From contig CAVXGK010000002.1 of NCBI GenBank assembly GCA_963761305.1, positions 2,528,001 to 2,592,000 on the forward strand: a stretch of 64,000 nt of DNA, written 5' to 3'. The notes beneath the pieces were generated by a model. It saw nothing but the letters and a program-made list of their open reading frames with translations, made no database searches and was not told the DNA's origin. Of this stretch, positions 31,354 to 60,096 are shown one piece after another. The DNA is from an uncultured Gemmatimonadaceae bacterium. GTDB lineage: Bacteria; Gemmatimonadota; Gemmatimonadetes; Gemmatimonadales; Gemmatimonadaceae. Numbering within the stretch: position 1 is the stretch's first letter; each line of letters begins with the position of its first letter. The position numbers and the translations under genes were made by a program.

Positions 31354-31467
31354 CGGTGGACCGGTGGACCGGAAAGGCTAACGGCGTGAAACGAGACATC
31401 AGACATCTGACGTCAGATGTCGCGCGTCTCCACCCGTCCACCCGTCCACCCGTCCACCCGTCCACCC
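31354..31467. repeat. Composite short-repeat element: inverted GTCCACCC-type octamers around a 20-bp palindrome
   Basis: CGGTGGAC x2 (31354-31369), GACATCTGACGTCAGATGTC (31402-31421), about 5 x TCCACCCG (31429-31467). Confidence 0.85.
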
Positions 31468-31483
31468 AGTCTCACCCCTTGCC

Positions 31484-31890: not shown

Positions 31891-32442
31891 ATGCTCATTG
31901 AATTCTGGAACGACCTGCGCTTTCGCCTGCGCGCGCTGTTTCGGCGCGCGGACGTCGAGGGCGAGCTGAACGACGAAGTACGATTTCACATCGAGCGCGA
32001 AGCCGAGCAGCTCGAGCGGCGCGGGCTGTCGCATGCCGCGGCGATACGTGCGGCGACGATCGCGTTCGGCGGCGTGGACCGCATCAAGGAGGAGTCGCGC
32101 GACGCCCGCGGCGTGACGTTCGTGGAGCACGTCGGGCAGGACGTGAAGTACGCGCTGCGAGGCATTCGCTCCCGTCCCGCGTTCACCGCCGTGGTCATCG
32201 CGACGCTGGGACTGGGCGTCGGCGTGAACGCGGCGATGTTCGACGTGATCGACCGGCTGATGTTCCGCGCGCCGCGGTACCTGATCGATCCGGCGTCGGT
32301 GAGTCGCGTATACACGGCCGAGCTGAATGCGCAGGGCGAACGGCCGGTCGACCGCAGTCTCGAGTATCCCCGCTACGAGGACGTGACCCGGTTCGCGCGC
32401 TCGATCTCGCAAACGGCCGCTCATCCGTCCACCCGCTACTGA
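31891..32442 (+). pseudogene. Truncated ADOP/MacB-like ABC permease (N-terminal 183 aa only)
   Basis: ELNDEVRFHIE, FGGV..IKE, QDVKYALR..P.FT..VIATLGLGVGVNAAMF; stops early in the periplasmic domain with no FtsX domains. Confidence 0.75.
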
Positions 32443-37953: not shown

Positions 37954-37980
37954 CTGAGAATGACGCGCCCCGTGGTGCGT
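37954..37980 (+). promoter_or_regulatory. Putative ECF promoter CTGAGAAT-N14-TGCGT (copy 1)
   Basis: Same bipartite motif and spacing on the minus strand at 46228-46254; 10 nt before GTG 37991. Confidence 0.65.
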
Positions 37981-37990
37981 TCATTCGGGC

Positions 37991-40084
37991 GTGAGCCATT
38001 TCTTCCGGCCGGCCATCCTCATCCTCGTAGCGGTACGCGTCGCCGGTGCCCAGCCGACGTCAGCGATCCGTGCGACATCGAACGTCGACCGCGTCGCCAC
38101 GATCGGGACGCGGGCGCCTGTCGAGATGACGCTGAGTCGTCCGCTCGCCGGCGACGAAGGGGAGCTCGCGCTCGTGGTCGGTGGAATGGACGTGACGGCG
38201 GTGTCGGATCGGACCGACTCGTCGATCGCGTATCGACCGACGGCCCTTCCGCTCCCCGAGGGCAGGACCGAGCTCGTGCTCTATCGCCGCAGCGGAACGC
38301 GATGGGCGGAGATTCGCCGCGTCTCCGTTCGCGTCGCACAGGCCGTCACCGGACAACACGGCCCGTTCAGTGAAAGCGCGACGGTCGGCAACAAGGGCCA
38401 GGTCGCCGAAGGACGGTCGGCGGGCGTGCCGGCGCCCGATCGTCGCGTGTTTCAGGATTTCGTGCTCAACGGCGGACTTCACTCGTCGAGCGAGAACGGC
38501 GGCTGGACGTTCACGACGCAGTCGAACTACGTCGGCGTGACACGCCGGCAGGAAGCGCTCGGTTTCTCGACGCGCGGCAACGCTGCCCCGCTGCTCGACC
38601 TGTCGGACTACTCGGTCGGACTGCGCTCGTCGAACGCGACGTTGTCCGTCGGCAGCGTGACGTTCGGCGCGAGCCGCCACCTCGCGAGCGGATTCGCGGC
38701 GCGCGGCGGCACACTCAACGTCGTCGAGGGTGGAACGTCGCTCGTGGTCGGCGCGATGAGCGGCTCGTCGCAGGTCGGCTGGTCCGACTTCACGGGGCTC
38801 GACCGGCCGACCGACCGCGTTTTCGGCGCGACGCTCGGCCAGGAGATGGTCGCGTCGCATCCGGGCTCGCTTCGCGTCGACGTGACGATCCTCGACGGGT
38901 CGAAGCAGCCGCGGCCATCGTTCACGCAAAGCGCGGTCGTCGACGCCGAGCAGAGCGCGGGGGGAAGCGTGCAACTGACGGCGGCGCTTCCCAACCAGCG
39001 CGCGAGGCTCACGACGGGCTACACGCGCAGCCGCTTCGAGAATCCGTCGAACGACCCGCAATTGCTCGGCGATACGACGCTCAAGCGCCCGCAACCGGCG
39101 ACGCGCGGCGCGCGATTCGTCGAAGGAAGCGTCGTCGCCCTGCAAGATCTCGCGACGCCGCTCGGCGGGCCGGCCAACGTCACGATCGGCTTTCACGACG
39201 AGCGCGTCGACCCGCTGTTCGGGAGCGTCGGGGCGCAGCCGAACGCGGACCACCAGCAAGACGGCGCGGATGCGACAGTCTCGCTGGGTGCGATCTCGGG
39301 ACAGCTGTCGCAGAGCTGGACGCGCGACAACCTTGGCAACGTGCAGTCGGTGCTCACGACGCGCGGCGCATCGACGACGGCGAGTCTCGCGGTGCCGGTC
39401 GCGGCGCTCGGCGGCGCTCGCCTGCAGCAGCACGCCGCGCTGTTTCCGATGTTGGCGTTCACCTTCAATCAGACGCGGCAAGTTGGCGACGGCACGCCGG
39501 TGAACGGCGCGTTTCGGCCGACCGACCTTCCCGACCAGGTCAATTCGGTCGGCGATGCGACGGCGACGTGGCAGGCGGGAACGACTCGACTCTCGTTTCA
39601 CGCGAACGCCGCGACGCAGGACAATCGCCAACCCACGCGCGAGAACGCCGACTTCGATTCCGGCGTGCTCGGCGTGTCGGTGGGGCGCGCGCTCGGCACG
39701 CGCGGCGACGTTTCGCTCGACGTGGGGAACGAGTATCAGACGGCGCGAGAGCGCGACGAGACGACGCGCACCAAACGCGTGACGATGAACGGCTCGTACC
39801 GCCCGCGCACGACGTTCAACGTGATCGCCGCCTTTTCGGTGATCGACGTCCGCGCGCCTGCCGGCACGACGACGGTCAACACCGAACAGCATCTCGAGCT
39901 GTCGCAGGGATTCAACCTGTGGCCCGCGCCCGCGGGCGAGCCGCAGCGCGGCCAGCTGTTTCTGCGATTCGCGCGCACCGGTTCGCTGGTGCCGAACATC
40001 GCCGCGACGGGCGTCGTAGCCCAGGCGGCCTCCGATCGCGCGCAGTGGACGGTGGCGACCGGCGTCAACGTGAGGCTTTTCTGA
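37991..40084 (+). CDS. Putative outer-membrane beta-barrel protein with N-terminal Ig-like domain
   Basis: Signal peptide; amphipathic beta-strand pattern; C-terminal TGVNVRLF resembling a BAM beta-signal. Confidence 0.65.
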   Translation: MSHFFRPAILILVAVRVAGAQPTSAIRATSNVDRVATIGTRAPVEMTLSRPLAGDEGELALVVGGMDVTAVSDRTDSSIAYRPTALPLPEGRTELVLYRRSGTRWAEIRRVSVRVAQAVTGQHGPFSESATVGNKGQVAEGRSAGVPAPDRRVFQDFVLNGGLHSSSENGGWTFTTQSNYVGVTRRQEALGFSTRGNAAPLLDLSDYSVGLRSSNATLSVGSVTFGASRHLASGFAARGGTLNVVEGGTSLVVGAMSGSSQVGWSDFTGLDRPTDRVFGATLGQEMVASHPGSLRVDVTILDGSKQPRPSFTQSAVVDAEQSAGGSVQLTAALPNQRARLTTGYTRSRFENPSNDPQLLGDTTLKRPQPATRGARFVEGSVVALQDLATPLGGPANVTIGFHDERVDPLFGSVGAQPNADHQQDGADATVSLGAISGQLSQSWTRDNLGNVQSVLTTRGASTTASLAVPVAALGGARLQQHAALFPMLAFTFNQTRQVGDGTPVNGAFRPTDLPDQVNSVGDATATWQAGTTRLSFHANAATQDNRQPTRENADFDSGVLGVSVGRALGTRGDVSLDVGNEYQTARERDETTRTKRVTMNGSYRPRTTFNVIAAFSVIDVRAPAGTTTVNTEQHLELSQGFNLWPAPAGEPQRGQLFLRFARTGSLVPNIAATGVVAQAASDRAQWTVATGVNVRLF

Positions 40085-41397
40085 TGATGACTCGCTCGGG
40101 CCGGCTCGCGCTGTTCGCACTCGCGCTGTCGACGCTACTCGAGGCTCAGGTCCGCGTGAGTCCGACGGGCGTGAGCGTGAGCTCGATGTCCGCCACGACC
40201 GTGTTTCTCACCTTCGGCGGACTGCGCAATGAGCGGCCGGCGGACGCGTATTGGTGCGGCGAATTGATCGCGGCGTCACCCGGTGTCGGCACGCGCTGCG
40301 ATCCGAGCACGCTCTACGGACGTTTGCCGGCGCGCTACGACCTGTCGCAACTGAGCACCGTGGGCGGCGTCTTCACCGACGTCATGTCGATTCCCCCGTC
40401 CGTTGCGCGCGCGGCGTATCAAGCGGCGGTTCGCGGCGCGACGTCGACGTTCTTCTACGTCCGTCGATTCCAGAGCGTCACCGGCGGACCGGACGAGTAT
40501 GTCGCGGTCACCTGTCGGTTGACGGGCGGCGGTGCGCGCTCGCCCTTCTCGCTCACCGATGTCCACCTCCAATTCGACGGCCAGGACGCGATTCCCTTCA
40601 TCGCGGCCGGCGGCGCGCCGCCGCAAGTCGCGGCGCGAATCTCGTACACGGGCACCGGCCGTCTCACCGGACGCTGGGAGATCGTGTTGCCGGGCGAGGA
40701 CCCGCCGTCGGCGCGCGATCTGCTCACCGAGGCATCGCTGCCGCTCGACCAACGAGGTGCGCAGCGACGATTCACGCAGCTCGAACGCTTCAGCGTTTTT
40801 CTTCCGCCGGACGGCCGCGTGACGTTGCCCGGCCCGGATCCGAGCCGCTTGCCGTCGGCGATCGATGGGACGTACCAGGTTCTGCTCCGCGTCGAAGCGA
40901 CCGACGATCGCGAGGGCGATTCGAATCTCTCCGAGGCCGGCGCGGGAACGGGCATCATTCACAGCGGCGCCGTCGCCGGTTTCCCGCTGCCGGTGCTCCG
41001 CTACGTCGTCGCGGGCGATGGTGCGCGAACTCCCGATGCCTCCGCATTGACATTCAGGTTGCTCGGCGCGCGCGACGGCGATTCGTTGACGGCCGACGGT
41101 GGCGTCACGGCGCTCTGGATTCCGCCGGAAGAACGCGGCGTCGAATTCTATCGCGTCGAACTCGCGACGGACCGCGGGGACGCGCTCTTCTCGGCGCTGC
41201 TGCCGCGCGCCGCGCGCCGTTACGACGTTCCCGCATGGGCAATCGCCAAGGGCGCCGGAACGCCGATTCGCTGGCGCGTGAGCGCGCTCGGCGCGTCGGG
41301 AACGGTGTTGCGCTCGAGCGCCTGGCGGCGAGTGAAGAATGGCGCCACACTCACGTCGCCGAGCGCGCAGGCGACTACGCGCCGCAACGAGCCATGA
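40084..41397 (+). CDS. Secreted hypothetical beta-rich protein with C-terminal FN3/Ig-like domain
   Basis: Signal peptide (..LLEAQ); TGATG overlap with previous gene and ATGA overlap with the sigma gene. Confidence 0.75.
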   Translation: MMTRSGRLALFALALSTLLEAQVRVSPTGVSVSSMSATTVFLTFGGLRNERPADAYWCGELIAASPGVGTRCDPSTLYGRLPARYDLSQLSTVGGVFTDVMSIPPSVARAAYQAAVRGATSTFFYVRRFQSVTGGPDEYVAVTCRLTGGGARSPFSLTDVHLQFDGQDAIPFIAAGGAPPQVAARISYTGTGRLTGRWEIVLPGEDPPSARDLLTEASLPLDQRGAQRRFTQLERFSVFLPPDGRVTLPGPDPSRLPSAIDGTYQVLLRVEATDDREGDSNLSEAGAGTGIIHSGAVAGFPLPVLRYVVAGDGARTPDASALTFRLLGARDGDSLTADGGVTALWIPPEERGVEFYRVELATDRGDALFSALLPRAARRYDVPAWAIAKGAGTPIRWRVSALGASGTVLRSSAWRRVKNGATLTSPSAQATTRRNEP

Positions 41398-42071
41398 CGC
41401 CCTCCTCCTCGAACGTCCCGCACCTCCGGTTGGTCGAGAACGGCCAGCTGCCGGTGGGTCAGGACGCCGCGTCGTCGACGACCGATCCAACGCCGGCGGA
41501 CGACGGGTCGGTGGTCGCTGCGCCGGACAACGACGCGTCGCGCGCGTTAGAGCACGTCGTGAATCGATTCGACGGTTTTATTCGACGATCGGCACGACGA
41601 CACGGTTTGTCGGGCGCCGACGTCGACGAAGTCGTACAAGAGTTGCGGCTTCGCATGTGGAAGTCGCTCGGAACGGCGGAGCTCATTCGTCGCGCGAAGG
41701 CGTCGTACATCTACCGGGCGGCGATCTCCGCGTCGATCGACATCATTCGGCGCCGGCGCGCGCGCCGGTTCGAGACGGCGACCGACGACGCGGTCGCGGA
41801 CGTTTCGCCCGACCCGCGCCGCCGCGCCGATTCGCGCCTCGACGAGCGCGAGCTCGCCGACGCCGTGCATCGCGCGATCGGGCTGCTTGCCGAGTCGCGG
41901 CGCGCGGTGGTGCGAATGCACCTTGCGGGGTACGAACGACAAGAGATCGCCGACCTGCTCGGCTGGACGGAAGCGAAGACACGCAACCTGCTGTATCGAG
42001 GCCTCGCCGATCTCCGGCAGATTCTGGAATCGTGGGGCATCGGACCGGCGAGCGCGGAGAGATCGCCATGA
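41394..42071 (+). CDS. ECF RNA polymerase sigma-70 factor
   Basis: DVDEVVQELRLRMW, ASIDIIRRR, L.ESRRAVVRMHLAGYERQEIADLLGWTEAKTRNLLYRGL. Confidence 0.92.
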   Translation: MTPSSSNVPHLRLVENGQLPVGQDAASSTTDPTPADDGSVVAAPDNDASRALEHVVNRFDGFIRRSARRHGLSGADVDEVVQELRLRMWKSLGTAELIRRAKASYIYRAAISASIDIIRRRRARRFETATDDAVADVSPDPRRRADSRLDERELADAVHRAIGLLAESRRAVVRMHLAGYERQEIADLLGWTEAKTRNLLYRGLADLRQILESWGIGPASAERSP

Positions 42072-42688
42072 ACGACGAAAAACTTCGAGACGCATACGAG
42101 CGCGGACTGCCGCGCAGCGACGGCTCGCCGGCTCTGGACGACGTCACGGCGGAACGTCTTCGCCGCCTCGTCGAAGGCGAGGGACCGGAGAGCGAGCGTT
42201 TGCGAACGCTCGACGTCGCGCTGTCGACGGCGGAGGGACGGCGCGAGCTGGAGATCGCGTGGGCCGCGGCCAAGGCGGCGCGTCCACCGCGCCGGTCGTG
42301 GCAGCGATTCGCGACGGCAGCGTCGATCGTCGTCGTCGTCGGCGCGTCAGCGATGTGGCTGCGGGAACGGAACGCGCCGACCGGCACGGTGCTGCGTGGA
42401 TCGGAGTCGCCGGTCACACTGATCGCGCCCGTGGGCGCGGTGCGCGCGGACCACGCGACGCGTTTCTTGTGGCGCGCCGTCGGCAACGCCGAGCGATACC
42501 AGATCGTCGTGGTCGACACGACGGGAACCGAGTTGTACGCCGGTGAGACGCGCGACACCGCGGTGTCGCTTCCGGACAGCGTCCGGCTCGTCCCCGGGCG
42601 CGCGTATCTGTGGTGGGTGCAGGCCCGCCTCAACGATCAATCGACCGTCACCGCCGTGACGCAACGCCTGGTGGTCACGCCGAAGTAG
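42068..42688 (+). CDS. Putative membrane-anchored anti-sigma factor with extracytoplasmic FN3/Ig-like domain
   Basis: ATGA overlap with sigma; helical N-domain, one TM (FATAASIVVVVGASAMWL), beta-rich C-domain. Confidence 0.75.
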   Translation: MNDEKLRDAYERGLPRSDGSPALDDVTAERLRRLVEGEGPESERLRTLDVALSTAEGRRELEIAWAAAKAARPPRRSWQRFATAASIVVVVGASAMWLRERNAPTGTVLRGSESPVTLIAPVGAVRADHATRFLWRAVGNAERYQIVVVDTTGTELYAGETRDTAVSLPDSVRLVPGRAYLWWVQARLNDQSTVTAVTQRLVVTPK

Positions 42689-42714
42689 TTCGAAGCATCT
42701 CCTCGGCGAAGCGG

Positions 42715-45636
42715 TCAGCGCTTCGCGCTCGTATCGCGCGTGGGCTGTGCGGCGTCGCGCAGCCACGGGAGCGGCGCGAGGTTGGCCGGACGCAGCGGCG
42801 GCCGCATCGACGCATCGCCGATCACGGTGAATGCCGCCCAATCGGAGATGCGCGCGCCCTCGCGAATCGCCGCCAGCTTCGTCTGCCGCAGCGCGTCGCC
42901 GACGGAAAGTCCTGCCGCCATCGCCGCGTAGAACCGATCGACGAACGGCAGCACGCTGCGGTCGCCGATCGACCAGTGAGTCACAACCACCGTGCGCGCG
43001 CCCGCCTCGAACAACGGACCGACCAGACCGCGCAACCCTTCGCCGCCCAGAATCTGACCGCCGAGCGTCTCGCACGCGGACAGAACGACAAGCGAACCGT
43101 TGAGATGCAGCGCAGCTACTTCCGACGTCGAGAGAAACCCGTCGTCGCCGGGACTCGGCGCCAGCGCGAGCGCAGTGCGCGCTTGTCCTTCGCCGTCGAT
43201 CAGCGCGTGCGTCGCGAAGTGAGCGACGGCGACTTCGCGCCAATTCACCGCGCGCAACGCCGCCTCGCTCGCGTTGTTGCGAGTGAGCACGACGCTCTTG
43301 GCCGCGTAGCGAGCGACACGCGTCGCTTCGTCGGCCGAGCGGGGAAGACGCGCCAGCGATACCTCGCGGAATGGCGCCGCCGAATCAGACGCGGTCGGGT
43401 CGGTGCGCAGCTCGATTCGCCGTCCATCGCGCTCGCGCGCGAAGGCCGGATCTCCTATCGCGAGCAGGCGTGTCGCCGTTGCCGGCGCGCGCACGCTGCG
43501 GAGCGCGAGTCCGACCGTCGCCGACGGCACGATGGAGATCGCGTAGCGCTCGACCGCGAAATGATCGTCCGCCAGACGCAGCCCGTCGAACGGAATTCGA
43601 TATAGGTCGCCGTCCGGCGAGATCGAGAGACGCGTGACACGCGCCGGCAGCGCGCGGACGATCGGCTGCAGCAGCGCGGCGCCGAGCTGGCGGCTCAACG
43701 CGATCGGCTCGACGCCGGTCGCCGCGACTCGAAGGTAGTGGTCGATGAGCGGCGCGACGGCCGCGCGGTCACCGAGCGAGACCGCGAACGCCGTGTCGTT
43801 CGTGATTACGATGGCCGTCGTCGGGGCGCCGGCCTCGCCGAGGGTGAATTCCACGAGCGCTTCGTCGGCGGACAGTTGTCGCCGAACGTCGTCGACGCTC
43901 AGTGCGGCATCCGACGCCGAGATGCGTCGAAAACCGGCGAGCGCCGTCGACGAATCCGCCATGCGTCCGACGGTGCGCAGCGAGGCGTCGGCGACTTCGC
44001 GCGCGCGAACGCTTTCGATGAACCGGAACGCCGACGGGAGCCGTCCGCCGGCGACGAGTCCGGCGACGAGCTCCGGATACGCGTCACTCAACCCGCCCCA
44101 TTCGCCGCGCAGTTGCGCCAAGCCCGCGCGCAGATCGTCGTTGCTCATGACGCGCCGGCGCAGCGCGATCGCCGACGAGAGGTACGCGATCGCGCTGTCG
44201 GCGGTCGCGACGCGATGTGCGCGCAACGCGAGCTGCGCCTCGAGCGCCGCGAACGGCATTGCCTGAACGTTGTGCTGGTCGCCGTTGCGCCACAGGAAAT
44301 GCGGCCGCGCCACGGCGACCAGCGAGTCCGCCGTTTGCAGATCACCGCGCAGCATCGCCAACCGCGCCAGATACACCGGCAGTTCGATCTGCCAACCCGT
44401 GTTCGCCGACGCGCGCGCCAGGCGCGTTCCCTCGTCGAGCGCGCGCTGCGCGCTGTCGAGGCGGCCGGCGCGCATCTGCGCGGAGGCGAGCAGCCGCAGC
44501 GAACTCACGGCGTTGAAGCTCAGCCCAGCGCGGCCGAAGGCGGCGACCGACTGCGCGTACTTCGCGCACGCGTCGTCGAACGCCCCGCGCGCCTCGGCGA
44601 CGAGCCCCTCGAACTGCAGATCCACGGCGAGGCCCCACAGGTCGCCGTACGACGCGTGCATCGCCGCCGCTCGCTCGGCTTGCTTTCGCGCCGATTCCGC
44701 GTCGCCCAACGCGAAATAGAGGTCGGCGAGATCCGTGCGCGCCCAAGCCTCGGTCTGCGTGAAGCGCGCGAGCTGCGCGTCGCGCACCGCGTGCTCGAGA
44801 TCGATGCGCGCACGGACGAAGTAGCCGCGCGTGAGTCGCCCGTAACCAAGCCATTGGTTCGCCGACGCGGCGCCGTACGCAAAATGGATCTGCTCGAAGA
44901 TCCGAACCGCCTCGGCGGCGGCGCGCTCGGCCTCGAAGAACGATTGCGAGCGCTCCACGATCGTCGCGAAGCCGACATCGCAGACGCCAAGCTCGCGAAG
45001 CGACCTGCTGCTCCGCGCGACGCGGATCCCGTCGGCGAGATGCGCGCGTCCCGTCGTGTCGCCGGCCATCTCCAGGAACATGCCTTCGGTGCAGAGCAAC
45101 TCGGCCCGCTCCTCGGCGATCGGACTCTTCGCGATCGCCCGCGCCTCGCGCACCAGCTCGAGCCCCGCCTTGGGACCGGCGCGGCGGCTTCTGAGTTTTC
45201 CAACGTTCACCAGCGCCTGAAAAGCGACGTGCCAATCGCCGGCCGCGAGATCCTCGGCGCGGGCCAACATGAACAGCGAATCGGCGCGCACGACGTCGGA
45301 CCCGATCGCGCGCCAGAGCGCCATCGAGACATGGGCCGCCGCGGTGTATTGCGAGGCGGTCGGAGTCAGGCGAATGATGCGGTCGTAGAGCGAATCAGCG
45401 CGTTCGTATTGGTAGCGTTGCTGCGCCAACGCGCCCAGCGCGAGCAACGCGCGTGGATCGTTCGGATCGCGCAGCGCGGCGGCGGTCCATTCCTTCTGAA
45501 ATTTGGATTCCGTCGCGGTCTCGACGGCCGTTTGCGCCGCGCGGACGATGCGCCACGCATCGCCGGCCTCCGGCAGCTTGCCCTGCGCGGCGCCGGCGCC
45601 GACAAAGGCGGCGATCGCGAACACGAGTGAAGTCAT
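42715..45636 (-). CDS. TPR-CHAT (caspase HetF associated with TPRs) cysteine protease
   Basis: TPR-like helical repeats; ISPDGDLYRIPFDGL, AHFATH (catalytic His), VVLSACET (catalytic Cys), VVTHWSIGD, WAAFTVIG; GGAG RBS. Confidence 0.92.
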   Translation of the reverse strand: MTSLVFAIAAFVGAGAAQGKLPEAGDAWRIVRAAQTAVETATESKFQKEWTAAALRDPNDPRALLALGALAQQRYQYERADSLYDRIIRLTPTASQYTAAAHVSMALWRAIGSDVVRADSLFMLARAEDLAAGDWHVAFQALVNVGKLRSRRAGPKAGLELVREARAIAKSPIAEERAELLCTEGMFLEMAGDTTGRAHLADGIRVARSSRSLRELGVCDVGFATIVERSQSFFEAERAAAEAVRIFEQIHFAYGAASANQWLGYGRLTRGYFVRARIDLEHAVRDAQLARFTQTEAWARTDLADLYFALGDAESARKQAERAAAMHASYGDLWGLAVDLQFEGLVAEARGAFDDACAKYAQSVAAFGRAGLSFNAVSSLRLLASAQMRAGRLDSAQRALDEGTRLARASANTGWQIELPVYLARLAMLRGDLQTADSLVAVARPHFLWRNGDQHNVQAMPFAALEAQLALRAHRVATADSAIAYLSSAIALRRRVMSNDDLRAGLAQLRGEWGGLSDAYPELVAGLVAGGRLPSAFRFIESVRAREVADASLRTVGRMADSSTALAGFRRISASDAALSVDDVRRQLSADEALVEFTLGEAGAPTTAIVITNDTAFAVSLGDRAAVAPLIDHYLRVAATGVEPIALSRQLGAALLQPIVRALPARVTRLSISPDGDLYRIPFDGLRLADDHFAVERYAISIVPSATVGLALRSVRAPATATRLLAIGDPAFARERDGRRIELRTDPTASDSAAPFREVSLARLPRSADEATRVARYAAKSVVLTRNNASEAALRAVNWREVAVAHFATHALIDGEGQARTALALAPSPGDDGFLSTSEVAALHLNGSLVVLSACETLGGQILGGEGLRGLVGPLFEAGARTVVVTHWSIGDRSVLPFVDRFYAAMAAGLSVGDALRQTKLAAIREGARISDWAAFTVIGDASMRPPLRPANLAPLPWLRDAAQPTRDTSAKR

Positions 45637-45746
45637 GGACCGCTCCGGCGGCGAACGGAGTGGGAGGTGCGCCCGCCGCTGACCCCAGTAGGCAGCACTC
45701 GGCGCGGTCCGTCAAGGTTGCTCATGATCGTCCGCTGACGAAGCAT
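45633..45746 (-). CDS. Possible 37-aa bridging micro-ORF
   Basis: Start overlaps upstream stop (TGATG) and stop overlaps CHAT start (ATGA). Confidence 0.3.
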   Translation of the reverse strand: MLRQRTIMSNLDGPRRVLPTGVSGGRTSHSVRRRSGP

Positions 45747-46216
45747 CAACGCGGCCGGTCCGTTCGCGCGCAGATCGACGCCTTGAGCACGTTGCTCTCG
45801 ACTCGGGCGGGCTGGAGCTGACGCTGTCCGTCCACGATGCGGACCTCTTCGCCGAGCGTCGCGCGCACCTGGAGATACAACGTCACGCGATGCGACGGAC
45901 GCGCAGCGTCGCATGGGTCGCCGCTTGCCTCGTACCAATCGCGCAACATCGGCGTGTCGGCATACGGCTCCCACCGCGCGCCGAGGAAGTCGGCGCGATG
46001 GCTGACCCGGTACTCGGACGGGCGGGCGCCGACGGTTGTGTGCACGAGAGCGATCGCGGTCGACGACGCCGCGACCGTGTCGCTCCCACCGTTGATGGAG
46101 AACGCGGTGAGCACGGGCGGTTGCCCGCCGCTCCGCTGCGCCAGCGCGAGCGCGGGAGCACCGCCGACGAGCGCGACGACAGCGGCCGCGCGGATGTGGC
46201 GCGCTAGCGGAGCCAT
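45746..46216 (-). CDS. Small secreted hypothetical protein (Ig-like, two Cys)
   Basis: Signal peptide MAPLARHIRAAAVVALVGGAPALALAQ; FSINGG..YRVS..F..ARWEPY beta-rich pattern. Confidence 0.7.
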   Translation of the reverse strand: MAPLARHIRAAAVVALVGGAPALALAQRSGGQPPVLTAFSINGGSDTVAASSTAIALVHTTVGARPSEYRVSHRADFLGARWEPYADTPMLRDWYEASGDPCDAARPSHRVTLYLQVRATLGEEVRIVDGQRQLQPARVESNVLKASICARTDRPR

Positions 46217-46227
46217 ATGAGGGACAG

Positions 46228-46254
46228 ACGCAGCCCGTCGCCCGGGATTCTCAG
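46228..46254 (-). promoter_or_regulatory. Putative ECF promoter CTGAGAAT-N14-TGCGT (copy 2)
   Basis: Minus strand CTGAGAAT-CCCGGGCGACGGGC-TGCGT, 11 nt before ATG 46216. Confidence 0.65.
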
Positions 46255-60003: not shown

Positions 60004-60083
60004 GTCCACCCGTCCACCCGTCCACCCGTCCACCCGTCCACCCGTCCACCCGTCCACCCGTCCACCCGTCCACCCGTCCACCC
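60004..60083. repeat. Octamer tandem repeat (GTCCACCC)x10
   Basis: Ten perfect units plus one degenerate unit in the intergenic gap. Confidence 0.95.
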
Positions 60084-60096
60084 GTCCCCCCGACTC

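Follow-up and report, generated by a model that had tools for sequence, protein, structure and literature searches.

A 64,000-nucleotide stretch of an uncultured Gemmatimonadaceae genome (contig CAVXGK010000002.1, positions 2,528,001 to 2,592,000; hereafter the window) contains a cluster of six genes, G1 to G6, encoding a predicted outer-membrane barrel, a secreted partner protein, a sigma factor of the extracytoplasmic function (ECF) class, an anti-sigma factor, an exported TPR-CHAT protease and a small secreted protein. The cluster is composed of two modules, a switch (G3-G4-G5) and a barrel-partner pair (G1-G2), and is not one system. We lean towards the explanation that a split switch of the DdvA type, known from Myxococcus xanthus, drives a separate surface module. 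The cluster would thus join a variant of a known switch to a candidate new export or display system. Of the two modules, the more novel is the G1-G2 pair, which the original prediction made for this stretch treated as accessory. Among named relatives, Gemmatimonadaceae are the closest. The features of the cluster are as follows.

37954..37981, + strand: ECF-type promoter motif (-35 GAGAAT, 16 nucleotides, -10 CGTT), with the G1 start 9 nucleotides downstream
37991..40084, + strand: G1, 697 amino acids, GTG start; signal peptide, N-terminal beta-sandwich (28-115), predicted barrel
40084..41397, + strand: G2, 437 amino acids; secreted, three Ig/FnIII-like sandwiches
41394..42071, + strand: G3, 225 amino acids; ECF sigma factor, regions 2 and 4.2
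42068..42688, + strand: G4, 206 amino acids; single-pass anti-sigma factor of a zinc-finger (ZAS) family, FnIII-like outer domain
42715..45636, - strand: G5, 973 amino acids; exported TPR-CHAT protease, H810 and C855 intact
45746..46216, - strand: G6, 156 amino acids; small secreted protein, no known family
46227..46254, - strand: second promoter motif, with the G6 start 10 nucleotides downstream

The original prediction described four overlapping plus-strand genes facing a minus-strand G6-G5 operon, and the open reading frame calls agree with it in sizes and overlaps. The G1/G2, G2/G3 and G3/G4 junctions overlap (TGATG, ATGA and ATGA, respectively), G4 and G5 converge with 26 nucleotides between them, and G5 lies 109 nucleotides behind G6. 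All six genes have a GC content of 0.81-0.86 at third codon positions, against 0.52-0.59 at second positions. A Pfam search identified Sigma70_r2 and r4_2 in G3 and a CHAT domain (E 1.4e-59) plus TPRs in G5, returned one sub-threshold match for G4, and found no match for G1, G2 or G6. The CHAT His and Cys motifs, likewise predicted, are intact (HFATHA with H810, LSACET with C855). The signal peptides of G1, G2, G5 and G6 and the membrane helix of G4 (KD19 1.62) are predictions based on hydropathy.

The trio of ECF sigma factor, anti-sigma factor and exported TPR-CHAT protease is common in Gemmatimonadaceae. Relatives of G4 occur in 76 of 200 other genomes of the family and CHAT in 119 (these tallies include genome G134, flagged unpublished, which no other result uses). 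We compared the regions around 40 of the best G4 matches, setting aside the own genome, two further loci and G134. A CHAT gene is found nearby in 34 of the 40 and a G3-like sigma gene in 33. With about 300 CHAT matches across 201 genomes, the estimated chance of encountering one in such a region is below 1%; G5 is the sole CHAT match in its own genome. The CHAT partners appear to be exported: in 22 of 27 complete unfused proteins (of 39 rows, 12 were set aside as truncated, fused or frameshifted), the signal-like stretch is, by hydropathy, the most hydrophobic and lies at the expected N-terminus. The dyad is retained among relatives (H810 in 31 and C855 in all of 34), and the CHAT profile matches the DdvA structure 8rot with E 5e-9. 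An alignment of 41 G4 sequences, from which two fused ones were dropped, shows the zinc motif HxxxCxxC, with the H, C and C present in 31, 32 and 33 rows, and then a helix, a linker that varies and an outer domain that is conserved; the G4 profile matches an FN3-like structure (E 7.7e-5). G4 of the window has lost the zinc ligands and carries V50, T54 and G57 in their place. In two relatives, L111 (4756-8829) and L118, the anti-sigma domain, helix, FnIII domain and TPR-CHAT share a single frame that lacks an internal signal stretch, and the close relatives L108 and L117 have split genes. Both fusions carry a zinc anti-sigma domain, and a different ECF gene lies directly upstream in L111.

The variable linker of G4 contains a conserved arginine. 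The sequence reads TVLR/GS in the window; 39 of 41 rows retain R110, and the residues around it vary. In 40 of 41 linkers, compared with 25 +/- 3 in shuffles, the outer domain is preceded at a distance of 4-13 positions by an arginine followed by a small residue. The pattern [VLMI]R[GS], picked after the alignment was viewed, is present in 24 of 41 linkers, compared with 3.7 +/- 1.8 in 2000 shuffles. Separase, a relative of CHAT, cuts after arginine (PMC11506125). R110 is a likely CHAT cut site, as judged from this conservation.

The trio resembles Myxococcus DdvA/DdvS in a split form and, as far as sequence allows a judgement, probably acts as a switch like DdvA. In the resting state G4, the anti-sigma factor in the membrane, would hold the sigma factor G3. 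A signal would activate the periplasmic TPR-CHAT protease G5, which would cut the linker of G4 after Arg110, outside the membrane. A protease of the RseP type would then cut G4 within the membrane and leave G3 free; the genome has four M50 peptidase matches as candidates of the RseP family. Free G3 would transcribe its own operon, the protease operon, in a positive feedback, and remote secreted genes from GAGAAT-N16-CGTY promoters. The switch would yield the G1 barrel and G2, its constant partner, which most likely export, or anchor at the cell surface, small beta-rich secreted proteins like G6.

The original prediction named the cytoplasmic Csx29/Csx30 system as a precedent; DdvA/DdvS, with its periplasmic TPR-CHAT and proposed cleavage model, is closer (PMC11506125). 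Both it and the trio described here have an ECF sigma factor with regions 2 and 4 only and the anti-sigma gene directly behind, a single-pass ZAS-type anti-sigma factor with a flexible linker as the proposed cut site, autoregulation, a His-Cys dyad in an extracytoplasmic CHAT (export being predicted here by hydropathy) and a promoter of the AAc/cGT type before the own operon, GAGAAT-N16-CGTY in our case (PMC6061681). Unlike in DdvA/DdvS, CHAT is here a separate exported protein encoded by a convergent gene and fused only in the relatives L111 and L118, the anti-sigma factor of the window has a small FnIII outer domain and no zinc ligands, and the regulon consists of a barrel and secreted proteins rather than the CBASS (cyclic-oligonucleotide-based antiphage signalling) or CRISPR systems. 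The cluster is thus not a DdvA/DdvS member: its protease is unfused, its zinc site is lost and it controls no defence island. PADLOC matched none of 14 cluster, flanking and remote proteins, and the window contains no array-like repeat. Type III-E craspase resembles the trio in combining TPR-CHAT with an inhibitor of an ECF-like sigma factor (Csx29, Csx30 and CASP-sigma) and in having sigma motifs within the locus (PMC10028731). Its Csx29, however, is cytoplasmic, RNA-triggered via Cas7-11 and cuts a soluble substrate (PMC10028731), whereas no Cas7-11 partner was found here by Pfam or PADLOC and CHAT is predicted to be extracytoplasmic. ECF54 sigma factors are also encoded near TPR-CHAT but are reported to be confined to Actinobacteria, to lack an anti-sigma factor, to recognise GTATCAG/CTCC and to have a subtilase partner (PMC7826278).

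An upstream motif common to both operons had been proposed, and the pattern CTGAGAAT-N14-TGCGT, defined post hoc, has exactly two matches in the window, none in 100 shuffles and no further match in the 5.2 Mb genome. Close loci retain both boxes with a changed spacer upstream of G1 and G6, and several also do so upstream of a G6 paralogue that is absent from the window. A relaxed motif, with a background of 0.016 sites per kb in the genome, stands before G1 in each of the nine close metagenome loci for which upstream DNA is available, and before G6 in three of five. GAGAAT-N16-CGTY agrees with the AAc/cGT pattern of ECF promoters (PMC6061681) and is, from its sequence and placement, very probably the promoter that G3 recognises. 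Lying 9 nucleotides from the G1 start, it would yield a nearly leaderless transcript. In five related genomes a stricter motif has 35 matches, 14 of them within the cluster. One remote site clearly precedes a secreted gene, the product of which is related (E 1e-12) to that of a gene directly before G1 in a distant operon. A third strong motif in the own genome lies 35 nucleotides upstream of an orphan gene for a 319-amino-acid secreted protein (C2 3064708-3065667, - strand; L208), the best of 4,118 open reading frames for a profile built from distant G1-G2 operon proteins (E 0.003). It has two Cys-rich repeats, presumably jacalin-like, and is a probable remote regulon member. The remote sites provide modest, independent evidence that the regulon consists of the barrel pair and its usual companions. 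Remote secreted genes from the same families of clients have the motif in front of them as well, which makes it most likely that the switch controls the barrel and secreted genes as its output and is not gated by them.

Two further sets of motif matches were seen. In L101, L106 and L109, GAGAAT-N16-CGTC stands before genes adjoining distant G4 relatives. The products are an OmpA-domain protein and, behind an S8 protease, small proteins that resemble barrels. In L226, a match at 1501 lies 38 nucleotides before a gene of 327 amino acids, which we take to resemble an integron integrase.

The distribution of the genes separates the two modules. Of the original prediction, a CRISPR-independent extracytoplasmic CHAT acting on the anti-sigma factor, with one promoter type before both operons, can be inferred to hold; the gating of the protease by the barrel or secreted genes within one conserved system is not supported. 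G1 or G2 was found in none of the 40 other trio regions, and the trio in two of 18 G2 regions. G2 is present in 14 of 200 family genomes, and G1 adjoins it in 15 of the 18 regions, the other three being contig ends or a fragment. We compared 85 further G2 loci, counting as close those with G2 at 62% or more. Close loci have G1 upstream in 18 of 18 cases and G3 and G4 downstream in 12 of 12. Among distant loci G1 is found in 50 of 56, G3 and G4 follow G2 in none of 31, and CHAT is present in 3 of 19 with 5 kb of downstream sequence. The six-gene layout is therefore kept in one clade only. Two near-complete genomes, G020 (100% complete) and G028 (98%), have G1-G2 and no CHAT match. Named relatives include Blastocatellia, Thermoanaerobaculia and cyanobacteria; the pair occurs in Gemmatimonadota, Acidobacteriota and some cyanobacteria, nearly always adjacent, and the family comprises about 1,000 clusters at 50% identity.

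The predicted structure of G1 (predicted template modelling score, pTM, 0.67) has 26 consecutive strands, no internal plug domain and a chain that ends on the last strand with a Phe. Conservation is concentrated on the outer face, including the outer loops, while 5 of 64 residues are conserved in the periplasmic turns. In the model, this fits surface docking of G2 or of clients better than a periplasmic platform of the usher type. Domains 1 and 2 of G2 are highly conserved, with invariant C58, C72 and C144, and domain 3 is related to the outer domain of G4. The pair resembles the chaperone-usher systems (FimD, PapC) in its large barrel, N-terminal periplasmic domain, multi-Ig partner and variable secreted beta-sandwich genes. 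A Foldseek search with G1 placed FimD first (TMq 0.37, root mean square deviation 15), a generic match at the level of the barrel. Usher barrels have 24 strands, and the subunits of these pathways have an incomplete Ig fold that a donor strand completes. G1 differs in its 26 predicted strands, the lack of a mid-barrel plug and of C-terminal periplasmic domains, and its outer-face conservation. No usher Pfam match was found for G1, and no PapD match in 102 G2 members; the PapD comparison is limited by the fold search for G2, in which domain 3 took up the hit lists and domain 1 was not queried by itself. MtrB/MtrA and LptD/LptE are similar in barrel size and in having a constant partner gene, MtrB and LptD being 26-stranded barrels filled by the partner. 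MtrB aligns over the whole G1 barrel at about 10% sequence identity. Unlike the multihaem MtrA, G2 consists of Ig domains, has three cysteines and lacks a CxxCH haem motif. FecA of the TonB-dependent cell-surface signalling system FecA-FecR-FecI has a 22-strand barrel, a plug and a TonB box, unlike the plug-less G1, and no TonB receptor Pfam match was found in 69 G1 members.

The neighbours of the pair would fit a role in handling secreted proteins. Secreted-looking neighbours account for 33 of 54 co-oriented genes, 13 of 35 opposite genes and 158 of 575 control genes, in a heuristic count over related loci that are not independent. Thr, Ser, Asn and Cys are more frequent in the co-oriented neighbours, some of which have CARDB, Calx-beta, Big_1 or prealbumin-like domains. 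A relative of G6 follows G2 in L166, a contig with no CHAT, and G6 relatives appear as a second copy in close loci. That G1-G2 exports or anchors such clients seems to us about as likely to be right as wrong. Alternatively, the pair could be an anchor or a lidded uptake pore without secretion, the secreted proteins being merely co-regulated and either periplasmic or exiting elsewhere. We consider this rather unlikely, given that the pair has variable secreted beta-rich genes beside it in different phyla, with runs of up to eight in Blastocatellia, and that remote regulon genes come from the same families.

Several observations weigh against a DdvA-type switch driving an export or display module. 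The CHAT step of DdvA is itself a hypothesis, and dyad mutants behaved as wild type (PMC11506125). The G4 profile matches the DdvA anti-sigma domain weakly (E 0.3). Six of the 40 G4 loci lack a nearby CHAT, and the five aligned ones all keep the arginine, so R110 could serve another protease or a structural role. Of the 21 remote motif sites, 16 were examined; ten are intragenic and one clearly precedes a secreted gene. The conserved face of G1 is the outer one, whereas an usher-like exporter would be expected to conserve the periplasmic face. An all-against-all search of the clients found no domain in common, and the G1-G2 loci L021 and L027 have no secreted neighbours.

Regulators beside distant G1-G2 pairs include ECF with kinase-TPR, BTAD-TPR, winged helix-turn-helix (wHTH)-TPR, hydrolase regulators, two-component systems and unrelated ECF/anti-sigma/CHAT trios. 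The frequency of TPR or propeller domains among them would suit a signal port, in which the barrel, with G2 as its cap, would let in or display a ligand for a periplasmic TPR sensor, here TPR-CHAT. The receptor-like conservation of the G1 outer loops and the resemblance of G2 domain 3 to the G4 outer domain agree with this, as does a quick CHAT tree, on which the label 'beside G1-G2' requires four changes, two of them forced by strong branches. We nevertheless regard a signal port as unlikely: the other trio loci lack G1 and G2, the periplasmic face of G1 is poorly conserved, the BTAD-AAA and wHTH-hydrolase regulators show no sign of facing the periplasm, and TPR regulators are abundant in these phyla. 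Least likely of all, CHAT could be an output, with G3 inducing G5 to process secreted proteins and another signal freeing the sigma factor, as the sigma motif before the G6-G5 operon and the G4 relatives without a nearby CHAT might suggest; this we hold improbable, as the trio is conserved while outputs vary, anti-sigma-CHAT fusions exist and the linker arginine is conserved.

A switch of the DdvA type driving a surface module thus remains our preferred explanation. The CHAT step proposed for DdvA has so far been untestable, for want of a known trigger and because one chain combines protease and substrate; the split pair described here, with the candidate cut site R110, the catalytic cysteine C855 and a defined promoter, makes the question directly testable. 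Large plug-less barrels are, to our knowledge, rare, and the known ones move lipopolysaccharide, electrons or pilus subunits. The G1-G2 family, which has no match in Pfam and in which the Ig partner stays constant and the secreted neighbours vary, is a candidate for a new surface route in abundant, little-studied phyla. We tentatively propose, with less confidence than a role in export or anchoring as such, that it is an undescribed outer-membrane system for protein export or display in Gemmatimonadota, Acidobacteriota and some cyanobacteria, in which a 26-stranded barrel and a three-Ig adaptor would pass or hold changing folded lectin-, Ig- and Cys-rich proteins, and which would here be switched on by a caspase-like periplasmic protease cutting an anti-sigma factor after one arginine. 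We found no description of the split exported trio or of the G1-G2 barrel family in the literature, of which subscription journals and supplements were covered in part, so that a mention could be missed.

The surroundings of the modules vary between loci. A seventh gene, a G6 paralogue behind G4, is present in L036 (12614-13105) and at the matching places in L037-L040, L134-L136 and L142. It carries its own motif in L036-L038 and L040, and has been lost from the window. In Blastocatellia (L042-L046, L048 and L202), G1-G2 stands at the end of operons that hold as many as eight paralogous genes for small secreted proteins. Most have a divergent wHTH-alpha/beta-hydrolase regulator, none being seen on L044 and L045. 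The cyanobacterial G1-G2 of L051 is fragmented and lies near a transposase-like open reading frame. A creatininase-family gene found upstream of G1 in close relatives is missing from the window, and an ATP-binding cassette (ABC)-permease-like gene behind a PadR-like gene (31891-32442) is shortened. Perfect 8-bp tandem repeats with the unit GTCCACCC or a rotation of it occur twice in the window, at 31429-31477 (6 copies), in the gap behind an amidase-like gene, and at 60004-60092 (11 copies).

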